A stretch of 64,000 nucleotides of DNA from the sequence record PP620640; one strand, 5' to 3'. The notes under the pieces were generated by a model. It saw nothing but the letters and a program-made list of their open reading frames with translations. It was not told the origin of the DNA and ran no database searches. Shown here in pieces: positions 5,698-64,000 of this stretch. The DNA comes from Escherichia phage fKMPT1. A program made the position numbers and the translations under genes. The stretch's first letter is position 1, and each line of letters begins with the position of its first letter.

Positions 5698-6810
5698 ATG
5701 TTGACTAATTCTGAAAAAAGCAGATTTTTCCTTGCTGACCTGACTGGTGAAGTCCAGTCTATCCCAAATACTTATGGGTATATTTCCAACTTAGGTCTGT
5801 TCCGTTCAGCACCAATCACCCAAACTACTTTCCTTATGGACTTGACTGATTGGGATGTTAGCTTGCTTGATGCGGTAGACCGTGATAGCCGTAAAGCAGA
5901 GACTAGCGCACCTGAGCGAGTTCGTCAAATCAGCTTCCCAATGATGTACTTCAAAGAAGTTGAAAGCATCACTCCTGATGAAATTCAGGGTGTACGTCAG
6001 CCAGGCACTGCAAACGAACTGACTACTGAAGCAGTAGTACGTGCTAAGAAGCTGATGAAGATTCGTACCAAGTTCGATATTACTCGTGAGTTTCTGTTTA
6101 TGCAAGCTCTGAAGGGTAAAGTTGTTGATGCTCGTGGTACTCTGTACGCTGACCTGTACAAGCAGTTCGACGTTGAGAAGAAGACTATTCACTTCGACCT
6201 AGACAACCCTAATGCTGACATCGACGCTTCTATTGAAGAACTGCGTATGCACATGGAAGACGAAGCGAAGACTGGCACTGTAATCAACGGTGAAGAAATT
6301 CACGTAGTTGTTGACCGTGTATTCTTCAGCAAACTGGTTAAGCATCCGAAGGTTCGTGACGCTTATCTTGCACAGCAGACTCCACTGGCTTGGCAGCAGA
6401 TTACTGGTTCTCTGAGAACTGGTGGTACTGACGGCGTTCAGGCTCACATGAACACTTTCTACTACGGTGGTGTTAAGTTTGTCCAGTACAACGGTAAGTT
6501 CAAAGACAAGCGTGGTAAGGTTCACACTCTGGTGAGCATTGATGGTGTTACTCAGGATGGAACTGTAGGTGTAGGACATGCTTTCCCTAACGTTTCTATG
6601 CTGGGTGAAGCAAACAACATCTTCGAAGTGGCATATGGCCCATGTCCTAAGATGGGTTACGCGAATACACTTGGTCAGGAACTATACGTATTCGAATACG
6701 AAAAAGACCGTGACGAAGGTATCGACTTTGAAGCTCACTCTTACATGCTGCCATACTGTACTCGTCCTCAGCTGCTGGTAGATGTTCGTTCTGACGCTAA
6801 AGGCGAATAA
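5698..6810 (+). CDS. Major capsid protein (candidate)
   Basis: 370-aa ORF following protease; codon usage visibly shifted toward CTG/CGT/GGT/GAA typical of highly expressed genes. Confidence 0.55.
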   Translation: MLTNSEKSRFFLADLTGEVQSIPNTYGYISNLGLFRSAPITQTTFLMDLTDWDVSLLDAVDRDSRKAETSAPERVRQISFPMMYFKEVESITPDEIQGVRQPGTANELTTEAVVRAKKLMKIRTKFDITREFLFMQALKGKVVDARGTLYADLYKQFDVEKKTIHFDLDNPNADIDASIEELRMHMEDEAKTGTVINGEEIHVVVDRVFFSKLVKHPKVRDAYLAQQTPLAWQQITGSLRTGGTDGVQAHMNTFYYGGVKFVQYNGKFKDKRGKVHTLVSIDGVTQDGTVGVGHAFPNVSMLGEANNIFEVAYGPCPKMGYANTLGQELYVFEYEKDRDEGIDFEAHSYMLPYCTRPQLLVDVRSDAKGE

Positions 6811-6831
6811 TATTCTTAAGGAGGGTTATGA

Positions 6832-7281
6832 ATGTGTTATACAGGCGACCCAGCCAATAACCCTCTTGATAGAGTAAGAATCCTCTGCACAGACACCAAT
6901 AATGATGAAATTCTTATTGAACAGTCTGTGCTAGAGTGGTTCTATCTAGAATCTGGAAAGGATGAAAAGAAAGCAGCCATCAAAGCTCTTAAATATTTAC
7001 TCTTTCAAGTAGCCAAGATGGGAGATGAGAAGGTTGGTGGTGTTTACTTGCGTAACTCTTCCAGATTCAAGTCTCTGAAAGCTGTTTATGACGACCTTGT
7101 TAAAAGCTCTGTTTCAGGACTGCCCTATGCAGGTGGTATTAGTCAGTGTGATATTGACATGCGTCGTCATAATCCTTGCTCTGTCAAGAAATACACAGAA
7201 TATGGTGATGCTGCCAGATATGAAGGCAGAGATTACTGCAACCGTGTTAATGGCGTATTTATTATCGAGCGAGATGAATAA
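6832..7281 (+). CDS. Hypothetical head-tail connector/completion protein
   Basis: 149-aa ORF with strong RBS AAGGAGGG; position in morphogenesis module. Confidence 0.4.
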   Translation: MCYTGDPANNPLDRVRILCTDTNNDEILIEQSVLEWFYLESGKDEKKAAIKALKYLLFQVAKMGDEKVGGVYLRNSSRFKSLKAVYDDLVKSSVSGLPYAGGISQCDIDMRRHNPCSVKKYTEYGDAARYEGRDYCNRVNGVFIIERDE

Positions 7282-22977: not shown

Positions 22978-23175
22978 ATGCCTACAATCCTAGCAATTCT
23001 TCTAAAAAATCTAGGTAGCTTCTTCTGGAAACTCGTTTTATCCCTTCTAAGTGAATACATGATTGAGAAAGTGTTCTTTAGGCTTGCAAGATATCTTGCG
23101 AGTAAGACAGATACACCTATTGATGATGAGTTCGTAGATAACTTAGAAAAAGCTTTTAAGGGGGAGAATAAATGA
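22978..23175 (+). CDS. Small membrane protein (holin/antiholin-class candidate)
   Basis: 65 aa, N-terminal hydrophobic helix ILAILLKNLGSFFWKLVLSLL; RBS GATGAGG. Confidence 0.3.
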   Translation: MPTILAILLKNLGSFFWKLVLSLLSEYMIEKVFFRLARYLASKTDTPIDDEFVDNLEKAFKGENK

Positions 23176-23543
23176 AGTGGCTAGAGGAAGCTTTTAAAAA
23201 TAATATTGGTGCAATTGTAGTTGGTATTTTTAGTGTTATCGGAATGTATACCACGATGCAGGTTTCAAGTGGTAAACAAGAGGTGTCTGTCAAAACAAAG
23301 TTACAACAGTTGGATAATTACACAAGTAGTAACTATTCAGCTATTCGTGATTTACAGTCTGACATTAGGCTTATCCAGTTAGGGATGGAGAACCAGAAAG
23401 TCCAGTTAGAGAATGTTAAGGGTGAGAACGCAAAACTTACTAAAACCCTTGATAAATTCTCTGACAGCGTGAACAATCTGGCTCAATCAGTATCAGCCCT
23501 CCAAGCTATTACTGAAAAGAACACAAAGAATACTGAAAAGTAA
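23172..23543 (+). CDS. Membrane-anchored protein, T4 t-like holin candidate
   Basis: 123 aa; single N-terminal TM (IGAIVVGIFSVIGMYTTM) followed by helical soluble domain; located directly after tail fiber genes as holin t is in T4. Confidence 0.35.
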   Translation: MKWLEEAFKNNIGAIVVGIFSVIGMYTTMQVSSGKQEVSVKTKLQQLDNYTSSNYSAIRDLQSDIRLIQLGMENQKVQLENVKGENAKLTKTLDKFSDSVNNLAQSVSALQAITEKNTKNTEK

Positions 23544-23548
23544 AGTTT

Positions 23549-23576
23549 AAGGCTCCTTTTTACGGGAGCCTTTTTG
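23549..23576. terminator. Bidirectional intrinsic terminator between convergent genes
   Basis: ggctcc-loop-ggagcc hairpin flanked by A-run upstream and TTTTTGTTTT downstream. Confidence 0.65.
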
Positions 23577-45812: not shown

Positions 45813-46054
45813 TGACTTATGTAATTTACTCCAAAACTGGATGCCCTCAGTGTGAGACTGCAAAGAATTTTGCAAAAGCTCGTGGTATTGACCATGTTGT
45901 GAGAATGTTAGGGCAGGATTATGAACTGTCAGACCTGATGGATATTGCACAGATGCCAGTTCGTCAGATGCCATTCATCATGAAGACTGATGGTCAAAAT
46001 CTAAAACCTGTTGGGACGCTACAGAATTTTATGGCAGAGGTGAATAATGCTTAA
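45812..46054 (+). CDS. Glutaredoxin-like protein (NrdC/NrdH-type RNR reductant)
   Basis: 80 aa; N-terminal CPQC redox motif (KTGCPQCETAK); follows nrdB. Confidence 0.65.
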   Translation: MTYVIYSKTGCPQCETAKNFAKARGIDHVVRMLGQDYELSDLMDIAQMPVRQMPFIMKTDGQNLKPVGTLQNFMAEVNNA

Positions 46055-46253
46055 ACGCCTTTGGGAAGGTTTGGTTGTTGATGCACCAGCCATTGTGATT
46101 GGTATGCTTGTTGTTAACCTATTTACTGATTTTGAACAAGGTTCATTGTTTGGAGCCATGCTATTATGGGTTATCTTTGAAATATTAGAGATACAGCTAG
46201 GCATCACTGAAAAACTAAGAAAACTCGTTTCAAAGTTTTCTAAAAAGATTTAA
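46047..46253 (+). CDS. Small membrane protein
   Basis: 68 aa with two hydrophobic helices. Confidence 0.35.
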   Translation: MLKRLWEGLVVDAPAIVIGMLVVNLFTDFEQGSLFGAMLLWVIFEILEIQLGITEKLRKLVSKFSKKI

Positions 46254-56142: not shown

Positions 56143-56165
56143 GAGGCTCCTACGGGAGCCTTTTT
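56143..56165 (+). terminator. Rho-independent terminator
   Basis: ggctcc-tacg-ggagcc hairpin followed by TTTTT. Confidence 0.7.
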
Positions 56166-56182: not shown

Positions 56183-56518
56183 ATGAAAATCAAAGAAATG
56201 AATATCAATATTGTCTTAGAAGAACGTTGGGAGAACATCAAGAAGCCTGAAAATGGTCATAAGTTCCTCAACAAAATCTTAGTAGCAGCTAAAGAAGAAC
56301 TGACTGGCAAGGTTGCAGCAGCAATTACAATAAAGGTGTGTGTAAAAGGTCTTCCAGACAATCACCAATTTGCACTTGACGAGTTTAAAGAAAGCTTCTA
56401 CAATCCAAACAAACAGATGCTTGAAAGTAATTTTGCAGTATCTACAAGTATCGTCCATGACAGAAGCTTTATCCTTTACAAGAATATGAGAGGTGAGTCA
56501 TGCAAGCATATTGGATAG
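56183..56518 (+). CDS. Hypothetical protein
   Basis: 111-aa ORF. Confidence 0.35.
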   Translation: MKIKEMNINIVLEERWENIKKPENGHKFLNKILVAAKEELTGKVAAAITIKVCVKGLPDNHQFALDEFKESFYNPNKQMLESNFAVSTSIVHDRSFILYKNMRGESCKHIG

Positions 56519-56676
56519 AAATTTTACTGTCACTTGGTAGTGTAGCAGTATTTGTTTACCTTCTTTGCAAGTACTATGCAGAACACAAAAAATGTGACTT
56601 CTGTAACGGAGAGGGTTATACAAGAGCAGGTTGTTGCCCTATGTGTGGTGGTTCTGGTAAAATGTTTAATAAGTAA
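56500..56676 (+). CDS. Small membrane-anchored protein with two CxxCxGxG (DnaJ-type) zinc-finger motifs
   Basis: 58-aa ORF missed by track length cut-off; MQAYWIEILLSLGSVAVFVYLLCKYYAEHKKCDFCNGEGYTRAGCCPMCGGSGKMFNK; RBS GAGAGGTGAG. Confidence 0.45.
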   Translation: MQAYWIEILLSLGSVAVFVYLLCKYYAEHKKCDFCNGEGYTRAGCCPMCGGSGKMFNK

Positions 56677-60260: not shown

Positions 60261-60276
60261 TAAGTAATTTCTTAAA

Positions 60277-60300
60277 AGGCTGCTTCGGCGGCCTTTTTTA
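60277..60300 (+). terminator. Rho-independent terminator (UUCG loop)
   Basis: aggctgc-ttcg-gcggcct hairpin followed by TTTTTTATTT. Confidence 0.65.
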
Positions 60301-60301
60301 T

Positions 60302-60329
60302 TTGTATTTTGTGCAGAGTGCTGTATAAT
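60302..60329 (+). promoter_or_regulatory. Sigma70-like promoter candidate
   Basis: TTGTAT -35-like at 60302-60307, TATAAT at 60324-60329 preceded by TG; RBS AGGAG before ATG 60361. Confidence 0.4.
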
Positions 60330-60360
60330 TGTTGTCACGATAAACTAAACAGGAGAACCA

Positions 60361-60909
60361 ATGAAGAATTTGATTCTAGGTTTGTGCTTAATGTTTACAG
60401 CACACTTATCTTATGCAGTTGACTGCCCAGAGCTATCAATTAGCCAAAAAGTAAACATGTTAAAAGCTTACCAGTATGGTGAGAACAACATGGGTAAAGG
60501 TTGGGGTATCACTCTAGCAGCTATAGCCTTACAAGAGTCAGAGTTAGGTCTGAAGGTAGAGAATAAAAAGACCCATGACTATGGTATTTTCCAGAATCAC
60601 TTGAAGACTGTTGTAAAGCGTAACAAAATCAGTCCTAATGTGGCTAAAAAGAAACTCTTAAAAGATTTTGACTATGCTGCAAAAGAGACACATAAAGAGC
60701 TTGAGTTTTGGACTAAGGTACATGGTCACCCGAAGTCAAAGAAGACTTTACAAAAAGTTTTGGCATCATATAATGCTGGGTATTCGTACAAAATCCCTAA
60801 AGCTAAGAAATACTCTCAAGATGTCTATAACAATATGAAAGTTATTGCTCAATGTGAATTTGCAACAAACATTTCTAAGGTAAATCATGAAAAAATTAAG
60901 AAAGTCTGA
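60361..60909 (+). CDS. Secreted lytic transglycosylase (SLT domain), endolysin candidate
   Basis: 182 aa; signal peptide MKNLILGLCLMFTAHLSYA; SLT motifs LQESELG, DYGIFQ, SYNAGYSY. Confidence 0.55.
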   Translation: MKNLILGLCLMFTAHLSYAVDCPELSISQKVNMLKAYQYGENNMGKGWGITLAAIALQESELGLKVENKKTHDYGIFQNHLKTVVKRNKISPNVAKKKLLKDFDYAAKETHKELEFWTKVHGHPKSKKTLQKVLASYNAGYSYKIPKAKKYSQDVYNNMKVIAQCEFATNISKVNHEKIKKV

Positions 60910-61582
60910 TGAAGTCCTGTGCCACGCTTATGACTTGCATCCTCATGAGTTAGGTCTTGATTCCTGTGTATGGACTCCAGAACAGTGCAGGGATTTTGAA
61001 GACACTGCAAGAGAAGTTGTATGTTCACTTGAAGAGTTCCACACATCAGAACCAATTGTGAACGTTGTGGATAAAGAAACTGGACAAGCTATAGGTGTAA
61101 GTCGTGATAGTTTAGTCATAGTCAATGAAGACCTTGTAGAAAAAGGTAACCTCATCTTAGCAGATATTGATGGTGTTCTTACAAATTTTAATCACGAAGA
61201 TTGCTCAACGGAATTGACTGACGGGTCATTTTCACAGTACACTAATCTTCTTGACTCTGTAAGAGCAAAACCAACATATATTTTCAGTATCATTGATGCA
61301 ATTGCTAATCATGCTGCCATTGGCCTCTTAACAGCAAGAGGTGAAACTCAGAGAATACCTACTGAGATGTTCTTGAGGCACAATATAGAGCATGATTACA
61401 TGCTTTTTATGCGTGGTTTTGGAACTAACTCTCTAAGTGCAGAAAGTTTAAAAGTGAGGATGATTCAGTCTTGCATTCTTCCTTACTTTAATATAGTATG
61501 TTTTATAGAAGATACAGAGAAGAATGTTCAGAAGGTTAACAGAATCCTTCCACACATCAAAACCATGCTAGTTAAACATTGA
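60887..61582 (+). CDS. HAD-like phosphatase domain protein (candidate)
   Basis: 231 aa; ILADIDGVLTNF resembles HAD motif I DxDG(T/V)L. Confidence 0.35.
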   Translation: MKKLRKSDEVLCHAYDLHPHELGLDSCVWTPEQCRDFEDTAREVVCSLEEFHTSEPIVNVVDKETGQAIGVSRDSLVIVNEDLVEKGNLILADIDGVLTNFNHEDCSTELTDGSFSQYTNLLDSVRAKPTYIFSIIDAIANHAAIGLLTARGETQRIPTEMFLRHNIEHDYMLFMRGFGTNSLSAESLKVRMIQSCILPYFNIVCFIEDTEKNVQKVNRILPHIKTMLVKH

Positions 61583-61592
61583 GAGAAAACTT

Positions 61593-62057
61593 ATGAACAA
61601 TATCATTACGGTAGCACTGGACGTTACGGAAAACAAATCTGCAGTAGTTCGTAACATTATCAAGAGCAACTTTGAGGGTAAAATCTTCCGTGCTGTCAAT
61701 GTAAAAGCAGACGGGAACATTCGGGAGTATCGTGCTCTTCTGAATGTTAAGAAACATGTCAAAGGTGCTGGTTCAACGACTGCACACAAAGAAAACCTGA
61801 TGACTATCTATGATATGGGTATGGCTTCAGAGTTAGGTGCTGAAGGTATCGTTAAAGAAGGTGCTCCGTATCGCTCTTTCAATCTGGAAACTGCTCTTAT
61901 GCTTTCCTTTACAAGTGGTTCTAAAACAACTACTTATCTCTTTACTGATGCTGCAACGGTATCTGCTATTAAGGATAGCACTGTCAAAGCTGGGGTAGCT
62001 GCTGCTGCAAAAGCTTCTTCGATGGCTGCAAATGTCCTTGCTAAAGTCCTCAGTTAA
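61593..62057 (+). CDS. Hypothetical protein
   Basis: 154-aa ORF followed by terminator. Confidence 0.35.
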   Translation: MNNIITVALDVTENKSAVVRNIIKSNFEGKIFRAVNVKADGNIREYRALLNVKKHVKGAGSTTAHKENLMTIYDMGMASELGAEGIVKEGAPYRSFNLETALMLSFTSGSKTTTYLFTDAATVSAIKDSTVKAGVAAAAKASSMAANVLAKVLS

Positions 62058-62068
62058 GGTTAAGATAC

Positions 62069-62090
62069 AGGCTCCTTCGGGAGCCTTTTT
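62069..62090 (+). terminator. Rho-independent terminator (UUCG loop)
   Basis: ggctcc-ttcg-ggagcc hairpin followed by TTTTT. Confidence 0.7.
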
Positions 62091-62109
62091 CATTTCAGGA
62101 GATTGTTAA

Positions 62110-62457
62110 ATGACATTTAAAGAGTTTTGTCAAGCTACTTTCATAATTGTTTTCTTAGTTGGGGCAGGTGTCTGGGGAGGATACTCTTACAGAGACTACC
62201 AAGTTGCTGAAGCTGAGCTAAATAATGAGAAACTAATAAGTGTCGCTAAAGATGCTTATCAGGAAGGTTTAGTCACACTCAGCACCAATTACAAAAATGA
62301 TTTGAAAGACGTGCTTGCTAAGAATAAGCATACAAAAGAGGTACTAACATATGAAAAAACTAAGCCAGAGTTTTATAATGTTTGTGTTACTGATAATTAT
62401 GTCAGGGTGTTCAACGAACAAAGTGAACAGTACATTCAAAAACTCCCAAGTAAGTGA
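62110..62457 (+). CDS. i-spanin (Rz-like) candidate
   Basis: 115 aa; N-terminal TM FIIVFLVGAGVWGGYSY then helical periplasmic domain; overlapped out of frame by lipoprotein gene. Confidence 0.5.
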   Translation: MTFKEFCQATFIIVFLVGAGVWGGYSYRDYQVAEAELNNEKLISVAKDAYQEGLVTLSTNYKNDLKDVLAKNKHTKEVLTYEKTKPEFYNVCVTDNYVRVFNEQSEQYIQKLPSK

Positions 62458-62620
62458 GAGTGACAAGTACACTCAAGAAGAATCAAGATTCACTGTCAAA
62501 GGCAACACTGGTAGTGATGTGGCAGCAGCCCTTGAGTTTTATCGTGATGGTTTTTACCAGTGCACAATCAAAGCTAATAACCTTATTGATATGATTTTAT
62601 TAGGAAACAAACAGCAATGA
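62351..62620 (+). CDS. o-spanin (Rz1-like) lipoprotein candidate
   Basis: 89 aa; signal peptide with lipobox-like IIMSGC; start embedded in 3' end of i-spanin ORF in another frame. Confidence 0.5.
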   Translation: MKKLSQSFIMFVLLIIMSGCSTNKVNSTFKNSQVSESDKYTQEESRFTVKGNTGSDVAAALEFYRDGFYQCTIKANNLIDMILLGNKQQ

Positions 62621-62886
62621 CAGAGAATGAAGACACTTTCTATGTAGAAGGGTACTTACTACTACCACGACCAAAAGAAACTTATATACGGGTTGATTTC
62701 TCACCAACCATTATGGATAACGTGATGTGTCATATCTTTATGCAAGGTGTCACAGCACAACTTAAGCATGTTGGTAAAGAGTGCAAAATAAAGGTTGACA
62801 CTCATCCAGAAATCAAAGAGAATCACTACACATGGTTCTTGCCAGACTCTAAAGAAATCTTAGCAGTTCTTAAAACGAGGAAATGA
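62617..62886 (+). CDS. Hypothetical protein
   Basis: 89-aa ORF, coupled start. Confidence 0.35.
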   Translation: MTENEDTFYVEGYLLLPRPKETYIRVDFSPTIMDNVMCHIFMQGVTAQLKHVGKECKIKVDTHPEIKENHYTWFLPDSKEILAVLKTRK

Positions 62887-63197
62887 TTATGCAATTCCAG
62901 CCAACAAATCGTGGATTTTCTTATGCAGAATTTAAAGATGCTAAAGGAGAGATTTGTACTTTACAAGAAAGTTCATCATATGAACCATGTATCTGGTTAG
63001 GTGCTAAAGAGGTCTCTGTTCAGTACCTAGATGGTGGCTGGAAAACACTTGATATCCAAGCGTTAGTAGGCAAAGATTTTGTAGGTAACCAAAGAATGAA
63101 ACTCAACCAAGAACAGGTGAAAGAGTTATTGCCATACCTTCAGTACTTTGCTGAAAATGGTGAATTACCAACAGAGGAACTTACAAATGCAGATTAA
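62883..63197 (+). CDS. Hypothetical protein
   Basis: 104-aa ORF. Confidence 0.35.
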   Translation: MIMQFQPTNRGFSYAEFKDAKGEICTLQESSSYEPCIWLGAKEVSVQYLDGGWKTLDIQALVGKDFVGNQRMKLNQEQVKELLPYLQYFAENGELPTEELTNAD

Positions 63198-63513
63198 TGG
63201 AAGAGACTTTGTAGCCGTTTACTACGAGAAAGATAAAGAAGTTGGCGTAGCACAAGTATCTTATGGTAATGGTAAGTGGTTATATGGCACAATCGCAGTA
63301 GTAGGAACAAGAAGTGATACAAAAACTTTTAAAGACTGTGTTGACCTTCTTGAAGAATCCATCCACAATCATTGGTGTCTGATATGGATGACTGACAACG
63401 AAGTGATAGAACGCTTCAAAAAGATTGGTATCAACATTGATAGCATTGAGCATGTTGACTTGTATGAGCTAACTGAGAAGGTAAATTATGAAAGTAATAC
63501 TAGCCAGAGATAA
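63187..63513 (+). CDS. Hypothetical protein
   Basis: Start moved to ATG 63187 (MQINGRDF) preceded by GAGG. Confidence 0.3.
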   Translation: MQINGRDFVAVYYEKDKEVGVAQVSYGNGKWLYGTIAVVGTRSDTKTFKDCVDLLEESIHNHWCLIWMTDNEVIERFKKIGINIDSIEHVDLYELTEKVNYESNTSQR

Positions 63514-63715
63514 AAAGACACGGAAAATTATCCGGTCAGCAGTATTCATTGGAAGAAATAAAGTGATTCCATTTACAGCAAATGATGTAATAGCCTACAG
63601 GGAAAAATTAGCATTTAGTTATTGCTTGCGTGGCTTCATCTCACAACCATTGGAAGACTTCAAAAGTCGTTGTGGCAAAGGTATCATCATTCAAGAGGCA
63701 ATTATTCATGGCTGA
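63488..63715 (+). CDS. Hypothetical protein
   Basis: 75-aa ORF. Confidence 0.3.
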   Translation: MKVILARDKKTRKIIRSAVFIGRNKVIPFTANDVIAYREKLAFSYCLRGFISQPLEDFKSRCGKGIIIQEAIIHG

Positions 63716-63908
63716 CTTCTGCAAAGATTGTGCTATCGAAATGTTCGGGCGGGATACAGGAGACTTAAAAGGTCTTATCACTGAAGATGACTTTAAAGCT
63801 GGCTATGCAATGCCAGTAATCTGTGAAGGCTGTGGATGTATCTGGGTAGACCACGAAGGACAACGTGTAAAACCTTCAGAAGATAAAGAATCTTGGGAGA
63901 GATGTTAA
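63708..63908 (+). CDS. Small zinc-binding protein (candidate)
   Basis: Start at ATG 63708 (MADFCKDCAIEMF...ICEGCGC); paired CxxC / CxGC motifs. Confidence 0.35.
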   Translation: MADFCKDCAIEMFGRDTGDLKGLITEDDFKAGYAMPVICEGCGCIWVDHEGQRVKPSEDKESWERC

Positions 63909-64000
63909 ATGGGTATTGTAAAAATCATCAATGGTGATATCTTTGCAGCATTTGATAAAGGTAAGTTTGACATCATCGGTCACGGTTGCAACTGTATGAA
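63909..64000 (+). CDS. Macro-domain-like protein, N-terminal fragment (continues beyond window)
   Basis: MGIVKIINGDIFAAFDKGKFDIIGHGCNCM resembles macro-domain N-terminus (GDI(T/F)...D.I(V/I)N.AN pattern). Confidence 0.25.
   Translation, partial: MGIVKIINGDIFAAFDKGKFDIIGHGCNCM

Follow-up and report, generated by a model that had tools for sequence, protein, structure and literature searches.

The region between positions 60361 and 62620 of Escherichia phage fKMPT1 (record PP620640), of which we analysed a stretch of 64,000 nucleotides (nt) referred to below as the window, encodes a lytic transglycosylase (LT)-like protein of the Vs.1 family with a predicted signal peptide and, downstream of it, a pair of spanins. 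In the explanation that fits best, and that we regard as likely to be correct, the region is part of a T4-style, scattered set of lysis and envelope genes of a Felix O1-like myophage, in which spanins and a GH24 endolysin are combined with an accessory Vs.1-type enzyme. The window is part of a Felix O1-like myophage genome: in megablast searches, positions 60300–62900 gave a 100% match at the same coordinates in Salmonella phage fBSPA4 (OR711204.1, 87,179 bp), and about 250 further Felixounavirus genomes matched at 90–97%. The part beyond position 64,000 (the remaining 23 kb) was read from the fBSPA4 record. Every open reading frame (ORF) named in a preliminary description of the window is present, in its place, in the window's ORF list (coordinates are collected in Table 1). 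The observations in that description were borne out and its interpretation was so in part: export of the LT-like protein, the spanins and the dispersal of the lysis functions were upheld, whereas the proposal that the LT serves as an endolysin in place of holin release was not. Dispersed lysis genes, an exported LT and spanins have all been described before, in publications or in the annotation of database records.

A two-component spanin of the overlapped class

Profile matches, predicted topology and conservation show that 62110–62620 encodes a two-component spanin of the overlapped class, with a predicted type II protein in the inner membrane and a predicted lipoprotein in the outer membrane. 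The i-spanin matches phrog_1152 'Rz-like spanin' at 1.1e-41 and has homologues in 402 phage records; hydropathy analysis gave a single 19-residue window with a Kyte–Doolittle (KD) value of at least 1.6, at residues 6–24, and none elsewhere. The o-spanin gene begins inside the i-spanin gene in the +1 frame, overlaps it by 107 nt and runs on past its end. Its product matches phrog_4180 at 5e-51 and phrog_456 'Rz-like spanin' at 8e-5, and its N-terminus, MKKLSQSFIMFVLLIIMSG/CS (the slash marks the cleavage site here and below), is made up of a basic n-region, a core of strong hydrophobicity (KD 3.1) and a lipobox. The lipobox Cys20 (codon 62408–62410) is followed at +2 by Ser21, the residue for outer-membrane sorting, and not by Asp, which is associated with inner-membrane retention. 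The ATG at 62351 is preceded by a GAGG-type Shine–Dalgarno sequence, and the Center for Phage Technology (CPT) annotation of Citrobacter phage Mijalis uses the same o-spanin start. The mature o-spanin contains no proline, and its Cys71 is conserved.

In order to assess conservation of the overlapping gene, eight relatives were compared (a Suspvirus, two Mooglevirus, a Hafnia phage, two Kolesnikvirus, a Kuravirus podophage and the P2-like Salmonella phage SI7), whose i-spanins are 26–83% identical to that of the window. All eight have a +1-frame ORF that overlaps the 3′ end of the i-spanin gene by 107–191 nt, and in all eight this ORF encodes a signal peptide and a lipobox followed by C-S-T. 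C20, S21 and C71 are invariant in the nine aligned sequences, the second cysteine lying within a Y-x-C motif. To judge from these alignments, such in-frame retention of a lipoprotein ORF with its lipobox Cys-Ser goes far beyond what chance would be expected to give. The preliminary description had held that its reading of the pair would fall if the lipoprotein ORF were not conserved in frame; because the ORF and its Cys-Ser are kept in all eight relatives, that objection does not apply. In phage SI7, the homologous spanin pair lies directly after the holin and endolysin genes.

The out-of-frame overlap of the i-spanin gene by a lipoprotein gene with the sequence IIMSGC was thus seen as described, with the transmembrane domain (TMD) at residues 6–24, the lipobox and the +1 frame. 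The phrase 'classic Rz/Rz1 architecture' used for it is right as regards a spanin pair and wrong as regards the class. In lambda, the Rz1 gene is fully embedded in Rz, which is not the case here, and Rz1 has a proline-rich region that the o-spanin of the window lacks. The arrangement is that of P2 LysB/LysC and of the JH2 family, in which an i-spanin with an N-terminal TMD is likewise overlapped at its 3′ end by a +1-frame o-spanin lipoprotein gene. A further difference is the single conserved periplasmic cysteine in each subunit. Kongari et al. (2018; PMC6139136) placed Felix O1, FO1a, UAB_Phi87, wV8, Moogle and phiEco32 in one spanin family, 'JH2', and listed the Felix O1 spanins under the overlapped architecture, so the pair is already catalogued. 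In the proposed mechanism, the i-spanin together with the o-spanin would bridge the periplasm and, once the murein has been destroyed, would fuse the inner and outer membranes as the last step of lysis.

The spanin call in Felix O1-like annotation is upheld by these data, and annotations of relatives that start the o-spanin late lose the lipoprotein signal. Several GenBank records of Felix O1-like phages place the o-spanin start at an internal Met or Val (corresponding to 62399 or 62423 of the window), which cuts off the signal peptide and lipobox; such starts occur in relatives' records L001 (5100–5321), L002 (5124–5321) and L008 (2814–3008), equivalent to 62399/62423–62620. We rejected both later starts, which remove the signal peptide, have no Shine–Dalgarno sequence and are unsupported by the conserved MK(K/R)L N-terminus.

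The Vs.1-family protein and its signal peptide

Homology searches show that 60361–60909 encodes the predicted Vs.1-family enzyme of the phage. The 182-residue protein matches phrog_600 at 4.4e-57 over residues 1–170, T2 Vs.1 matches the same profile at 2.8e-68, and the two proteins align in BLASTP at 1e-15 with 32% identity over 144 residues. The window protein and T4/T2 Vs.1 (UniProt P13311) are of nearly equal length (182 and 181 residues) and have in common a full-length phrog_600 match, a signal peptide and the motifs ES, G-x-F-Q and S-Y-N-x-G; in T2 Vs.1, whose N-terminus reads MRKALLAGLLAISMMAHS/SE, these appear as WQESSGG, YGMFQN and SYNSGW. They differ in their neighbours, which are regB and vs for T4/T2 vs.1 and rIIB and a polynucleotide kinase (PNK) gene for the window homologue, and in their cysteines: a Cys22/Cys165 pair is conserved in the Felix O1 clade, whereas T2 Vs.1 has none.

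A family profile search returned 869 cluster representatives, 521 of them at E ≤ 1e-10, nearly all 150–200 residues long and aligned from residue 1. With tblastn against cultured phages, matches were found in 2,142 records, annotated as vs.1 in T2, RB32 and RB69; the family is widely conserved in the Straboviridae, Ounavirinae and Ackermannviridae. The record of Acinetobacter phage Berthold describes its member as 'Vs.1; putative lytic murein transglycosylase, putative periplasmic secretion signal'. Some Felix O1-like records call the homologue 'endoribonuclease', which we regard as a misannotation that arose because vs.1 adjoins regB in T2.

The protein carries the three signature motifs of family-1 LTs, E59-S60 (in ALQESEL), Y74-G-I-F-Q78 and S136-Y-N-A-G140. 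E59, Y137 and G140 are invariant across 69 family sequences, and an alignment of 12 relatives showed E59 (QES), G75/Q78 (Y-G-x-F-Q) and Y137-N138-x-G140 to be invariant. Its AlphaFold model has a mean confidence (pLDDT) of 81.5, the signal peptide and the C-terminal tail alone scoring low, and comparison of this predicted structure, with which Foldseek agrees, gave a lysozyme-like SLT/GH23 fold. G-type lysozymes share the GH23 fold. Sequence searches of PDB chains with the protein and with the family profile gave nothing meaningful, fold comparison alone yielding matches; profile matches to PRP4 kinase among PDB chains were rejected as chance. NCBIfam gave no match for ten family members. From the motifs and fold we infer that the product is a small SLT/GH23 muramidase or LT (the gene is called the SLT gene below). 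The protein has the small, secreted, single-domain format of EtgA in common with that enzyme, and differs from EtgA, MltE, MltC and Slt70 in having no detectable sequence match in the PDB, in being phage-encoded and in lacking a secretion-system context.

The LT had been described as having a cleavable-looking signal peptide, and the N-terminus agrees with this. An n-region MK (K2) is followed by an 11-residue core, LILGLCLMFTA (KD 2.5), and by the site S-Y-A/VD, which satisfies the −3/−1 rule for a cut after Ala19; relatives have A-x-A at that place. The protein therefore has the features used to recognise Sec (signal peptidase I) substrates, namely a basic n-region, a core of 7–15 residues and small residues at −3 and −1. 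The call was made by manual rules together with conservation across the family, as represented by 69 sequences that are 26–48% identical to the window protein: an N-terminal hydrophobic core is present in 68 of the 69 and a K/R n-region in 65, and N-terminal hydrophobic features also occur in the T2, Ackermannviridae, Acinetobacter and Vibrio homologues. Because core and basic n-region persist while the N-terminal sequence drifts, the segment appears to be a functional signal peptide, and Sec-dependent export by means of a cleavable signal is almost certain for this protein.

The same N-terminus might instead be a signal-anchor-release (SAR) domain, so that the enzyme would be a SAR endolysin, tethered in an inactive state and freed on depolarisation as are P1 Lyz and phage 21 R. 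A hydrophobic N-terminus directly before a muralytic domain would fit such a protein, and the placing of Cys9 inside the hydrophobic segment and of Cys22 shortly behind it recalls the disulfide caging of P1 Lyz. However, the core of 11–13 residues is too short to span a bilayer (a SAR TMD has about 20) and is strongly hydrophobic and not Gly/Ala-rich; behind it comes a small-x-small site, kept as AxA in relatives, and T2 Vs.1 is devoid of cysteine. We consider a SAR endolysin extremely unlikely.

Endolysin, timing and the role of the exported enzyme

A gene for a 154-residue lysozyme lies 13 kb past the end of the window, beyond the view of the preliminary description. Its product matches Pfam Phage_lysozyme (PF00959) at 1.5e-40 and phrog_7 'endolysin' at 3e-56, and has neither a hydrophobic segment nor a signal, its top 19-residue KD value being 0.81. 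Because a lysozyme match is combined with the lack of a hydrophobic segment, these analyses show that the genome encodes a standard GH24 endolysin, predicted to be cytoplasmic, signal-less and holin-dependent. The endolysins of the Felix O1-like phages Moogle and Meda are likewise described as a soluble lysozyme or glycoside hydrolase, and their lysis genes as 'scattered around the genome', with no cassette (PMC4319497, PMC6486253). The 'lysin' that annotations place beside rIIB is not the endolysin. The proposal that Sec-dependent export of the LT takes the place of a holin-released endolysin was accordingly not supported, given the signal-less lysozyme at 76745–77209 and the identity of the LT as a Vs.1 homologue.

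In the form that this proposal could still take, the LT would be the endolysin, exported ahead of time by Sec and set off by the loss of membrane potential that a distant holin or pinholin would cause, in the manner of Lys44 of Oenococcus phage fOg44. In its favour, the protein has a genuine signal peptide and its catalytic site is intact, its gene is 1.2 kb from the spanins, and in one metagenomic T4-like contig a homologue lies directly between a T4-type spanin gene and a pseT-like kinase gene. Against this, a canonical soluble GH24 endolysin is encoded in the same genome, and vs.1 is unlinked to e, t or the spanin genes in T4 and T2. In T4, mutants in e or t do not lyse despite an intact vs.1, and a Vs.1-type enzyme is therefore insufficient for lysis. 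Moreover, T4 vs.1 is expressed with early RNA and middle protein and is still listed as a 'conserved hypothetical protein' in a T4 multi-omics study (PMC9697503 supplement). We find an exported endolysin very unlikely. According to the same supplement, the T4 spanin genes pseT.3 and pseT.2 also give early RNA.

The position of the SLT gene is consistent with similar timing in the Felix O1-like phage. It follows directly on rIIA and rIIB and lies between the terminator hairpins at 60274–60297 and 62069–62086, behind a TATAAT hexamer and overlapping the PNK gene, the start of which lies 23 nt inside its 3′ end. The first hairpin divides rIIB from the SLT–PNK unit, and phage Mijalis has an annotated terminator at the corresponding place. 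We read the hexamer as a putative early or middle promoter of the sigma-70 type; its −35 element is weak (three of six positions match) and the site was not listed by a promoter scan. On these grounds the SLT–PNK unit looks early or middle. Two genes separate the SLT gene from the spanins, first the PNK gene, an intervening gene and not a lysis gene, and then a conserved hypothetical gene. A GGAG Shine–Dalgarno sequence precedes the SLT start.

A search for related loci with an alignment of close homologues returned almost exclusively near-identical Felixounavirus loci, and nine family contexts were sampled by hand. Phages of Suspvirus and Mooglevirus, as well as Hafnia and Erwinia phages, have the same order, rIIA–rIIB–(small ORF)–SLT–PNK…macro-domain phosphatase, and so do metagenomic contigs in which the SLT protein is only 38–40% identical. 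The neighbours differ in T2, the Ackermannviridae and Vibrio phages; because they differ among lineages, there is no universal linkage of the SLT gene to lysis genes. The idea of a general SLT–spanin linkage, true here and in the one T4-like contig but not in T2/T4 or most other contexts, was dropped.

We propose the following sequence of events. The SLT gene would be co-transcribed with the PNK gene from an early/middle-type unit, and the Vs.1-type protein would enter the Sec pathway by its signal peptide, be cut after Ala19 and be released to the periplasm, where a Cys22–Cys165 disulfide probably stabilises it in the Felix O1 clade. Because it would be transcribed from an early/middle-type unit, the enzyme would act on the sacculus well before lysis, in an accessory murein-remodelling or sensitising capacity and not as the lysis endolysin. 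At lysis, the murein would be destroyed by the GH24 lysozyme, which would need a hole-forming holin; the best candidate for this step is the single-TMD protein of 123 residues encoded at 23172–23543.

Several points weigh against this explanation. The Pfam SLT score of the window protein (PF01464, 18.8 bits, E 0.0012) falls below the gathering cut-off of 21.3; the assignment nevertheless holds because homologues match Pfam SLT, including 11 of 12 aligned relatives (best 8e-12) and T2 Vs.1, which at 24.7 bits is above the cut-off. Cleavage of the signal peptide is predicted, on manual rules and conservation. The SLT gene lies beside spanin genes in some lineages (the T4-like contig, L018), leaving room for a lysis-linked role. 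A literature search found no functional study of Vs.1 or of a second Felix O1 lysin, and the accessory role, which we infer, leans on classical T4 genetics and on T4 timing and not on the timing of this phage. Finally, the holin is a candidate only, and the Meda announcement reports no identifiable holin (PMC6486253).

A role unconnected with lysis can also be envisaged, in which the Vs.1-type enzyme is an early periplasmic factor that might change the murein so as to exclude superinfecting phage, condition the envelope for lysis inhibition or spanin threading, or release anhydromuropeptides. This would agree with the early/middle expression of the T4 homologue, with the predicted export, with the position of the gene beside rIIA/rIIB here and within a few kb of rI in T2 and Berthold, and with conservation across the three phage groups named above. 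Yet the neighbourhood varies among lineages, and these roles overlap with the accessory enzyme of our preferred explanation. We regard a lysis-unrelated factor as possible but doubtful. Equally tentative is the more general suggestion that Vs.1-type transglycosylases are a widespread early-to-middle periplasmic factor, not lysis enzymes, that would remodel the sacculus during the latent period.

Were this so, the factor, which occurs in over 2,000 sequenced phages belonging to three or more families, may enable assembly of spanin or holin–antiholin complexes in the periplasm or may block superinfecting phage, and Vs.1 would represent a never-characterised class of phage–host envelope manipulation. 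T-even, Felix O1-like and Vi1-like phages all carry this conserved, predicted Sec-exported murein-cleaving enzyme with its catalytic site intact.

Two observations concern the surroundings of the family. The Felix O1-type early region (60361–64000) and the T2 regB–tk region (59–62 kb) have in common a Vs.1 homologue and a tk.4-like macro-domain 'phosphatase', with rII genes close by; this shared content suggests an old module common to the Ounavirinae and Straboviridae. In metagenomic contig ERZ21849166 contig_2694, an ORF for a 103-residue lipoprotein (LLVSG/CST…; 6567–6878) overlaps the 3′ end of a distant SLT gene; the lipoprotein could be a spanin-like or immunity-like partner.

Holin candidates, dispersal of the lysis genes and other features

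Holin-like genes had been described after the tail fibers, at 22978–23543, and were found there, directly 3′ of a tail-fibre gene for 792 residues. They had also been called the only ones, which does not hold because the product of 46047–46253 (+ strand) in the window has a class-II-holin-like shape: this 68-residue protein (phrog_4532) combines two predicted TMDs with a C-terminus that is highly basic (…KLRKLVSKFSKKI) and is encoded inside the nucleotide-reductase gene cluster.

The first of the two genes after the tail fibers is lysis-associated by position only. In Krischvirus Phi1, a phrog_402 homologue of its 65-residue product is flanked by tail-fibre gene 37 on one side and by a genuine T holin gene (PF11031, 4.5e-61) on the other; in a Vibrio phage, a further homologue is encoded after the gene for an M15-type peptidase. 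The second, encoding the 123-residue protein, is our best holin candidate, unproven; many relatives' annotations, curated CPT genomes included, call it a '(putative) holin', and neither Pfam nor PHROGs gave a match to Phage_holin_T or another holin family. Compared with the class III topology of T4 T, it shows one TMD and, through its phrog_402 neighbour, a place analogous to that of t. The holin is 'putative' in one of the Moogle and Meda announcements and 'not identified' in the other (PMC4319497, PMC6486253).

The real holin might thus be a different small membrane protein, such as the 68-residue protein or one encoded outside the window. Apart from the missing family match and the Meda report, the topology of the 123-residue protein is i-spanin-like, with a weak phrog_739 match, and the genome has further small TMD proteins. 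Nevertheless, its gene stands where T4 has t, behind the tail fibres, the phrog_402 gene beside it has a homologue next to a genuine T holin gene in Phi1, and several curated annotations call it a putative holin. We think a different holin conceivable, though not the better bet.

The spanins, the GH24 lysozyme and the holin candidate are unlinked, so that the described dispersal of lysis functions was confirmed. T4 (e, t, pseT.3/pseT.2, rI, rIIA/B) resembles the Felix O1-like genome in this respect, the genes for endolysin, holin (here the candidate) and spanins being unlinked and rIIA/rIIB present in both. T4 t, which follows genes 37/38, and the holin candidate of the window both come after tail-fibre genes. 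T4 spanin genes pseT.3/pseT.2 lie beside pseT (the adjacency of pseT and pseT.3 is seen in the PMC9697503 supplement), and the window spanins lie near the PNK gene. The systems differ in that the T4 spanin genes are separate and those of the window overlapped, and in that the holin candidate is not a Phage_holin_T homologue.

Table 1. Features of the region and of the associated lysis loci (window coordinates unless stated otherwise)
Feature	Position	Strand	Remarks
Small hydrophobic/amphipathic protein, 65 aa	22978–23175	+	phrog_402; directly after tail-fibre gene (792 aa)
Holin candidate, 123 aa	23172–23543	+	One TMD, residues 11–31; C-terminal coiled-coil-like domain of ~90 aa (weak matches)
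Terminator	23549–23572	+	Directly after 23172–23543
Intrinsic terminator-like hairpin	60274–60297	+	After rIIB; 10-bp stem, 5 GC pairs, T-run
Putative −10 hexamer, perfect TATAAT	60324–60329	+	31 nt 5′ of SLT start
Vs.1-family SLT/GH23 LT-like protein, predicted periplasmic, 182 aa	60361–60909	+	Predicted signal peptide residues 1–19 (60361–60417); Glu59 codon 60535–60537
PNK/phosphatase-like gene	60887–61582	+	phrog_3970, 6e-133; PNK in relatives' annotation
Conserved hypothetical gene, 154 aa	61593–62057	+	phrog_2267; no TMD by hydropathy; intervening gene
Terminator-like hairpin GGCTCC-TTCG-GGAGCC + T-run	62069–62086	+	Directly 5′ of i-spanin gene; terminator annotated there in Mijalis
i-spanin, 115 aa	62110–62457	+	One N-terminal TMD, residues 6–24; periplasmic domain; conserved Cys92; phrog_1152
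o-spanin, 89-aa precursor, 70-aa mature	62351–62620	+	+1 frame; lipobox IIMSG/C; phrog_4180, phrog_456
GH24 lysozyme, 154 aa	76745–77209 of OR711204	−	Annotated 'lysin (lysozyme)'; PF00959, phrog_7; outside window

The stem GGCTCC…GGAGCC is common to three terminator hairpins on the + strand, at 23551–23570, 56145–56160 and 62070–62085 (three matches, against none in 100 shuffles); the first follows the holin-like gene, the second precedes rIIA and the third precedes the i-spanin gene. The T4 late-promoter motif TATAAATA gave one match against 3.8 expected and was uninformative. Just 5′ of rIIA, an ORF for 58 residues (56500–56676, + strand) encodes a single TMD at the N-terminus and, after it, a zinc-ribbon-like tail of the form CxxC…CxxC, with a weak DUF5351 match only.

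Lastly, records assigned to Campylobacter phage A126 (MG065668.1), Listeria phage LPML1 (UCR92222.1) and Staphylococcus phage SA1 carry identical or nearly identical Felix O1-like or Hafnia-phage genes, the A126 i-spanin being 100% identical. The host assignments of these records are probably wrong or the samples contaminated.

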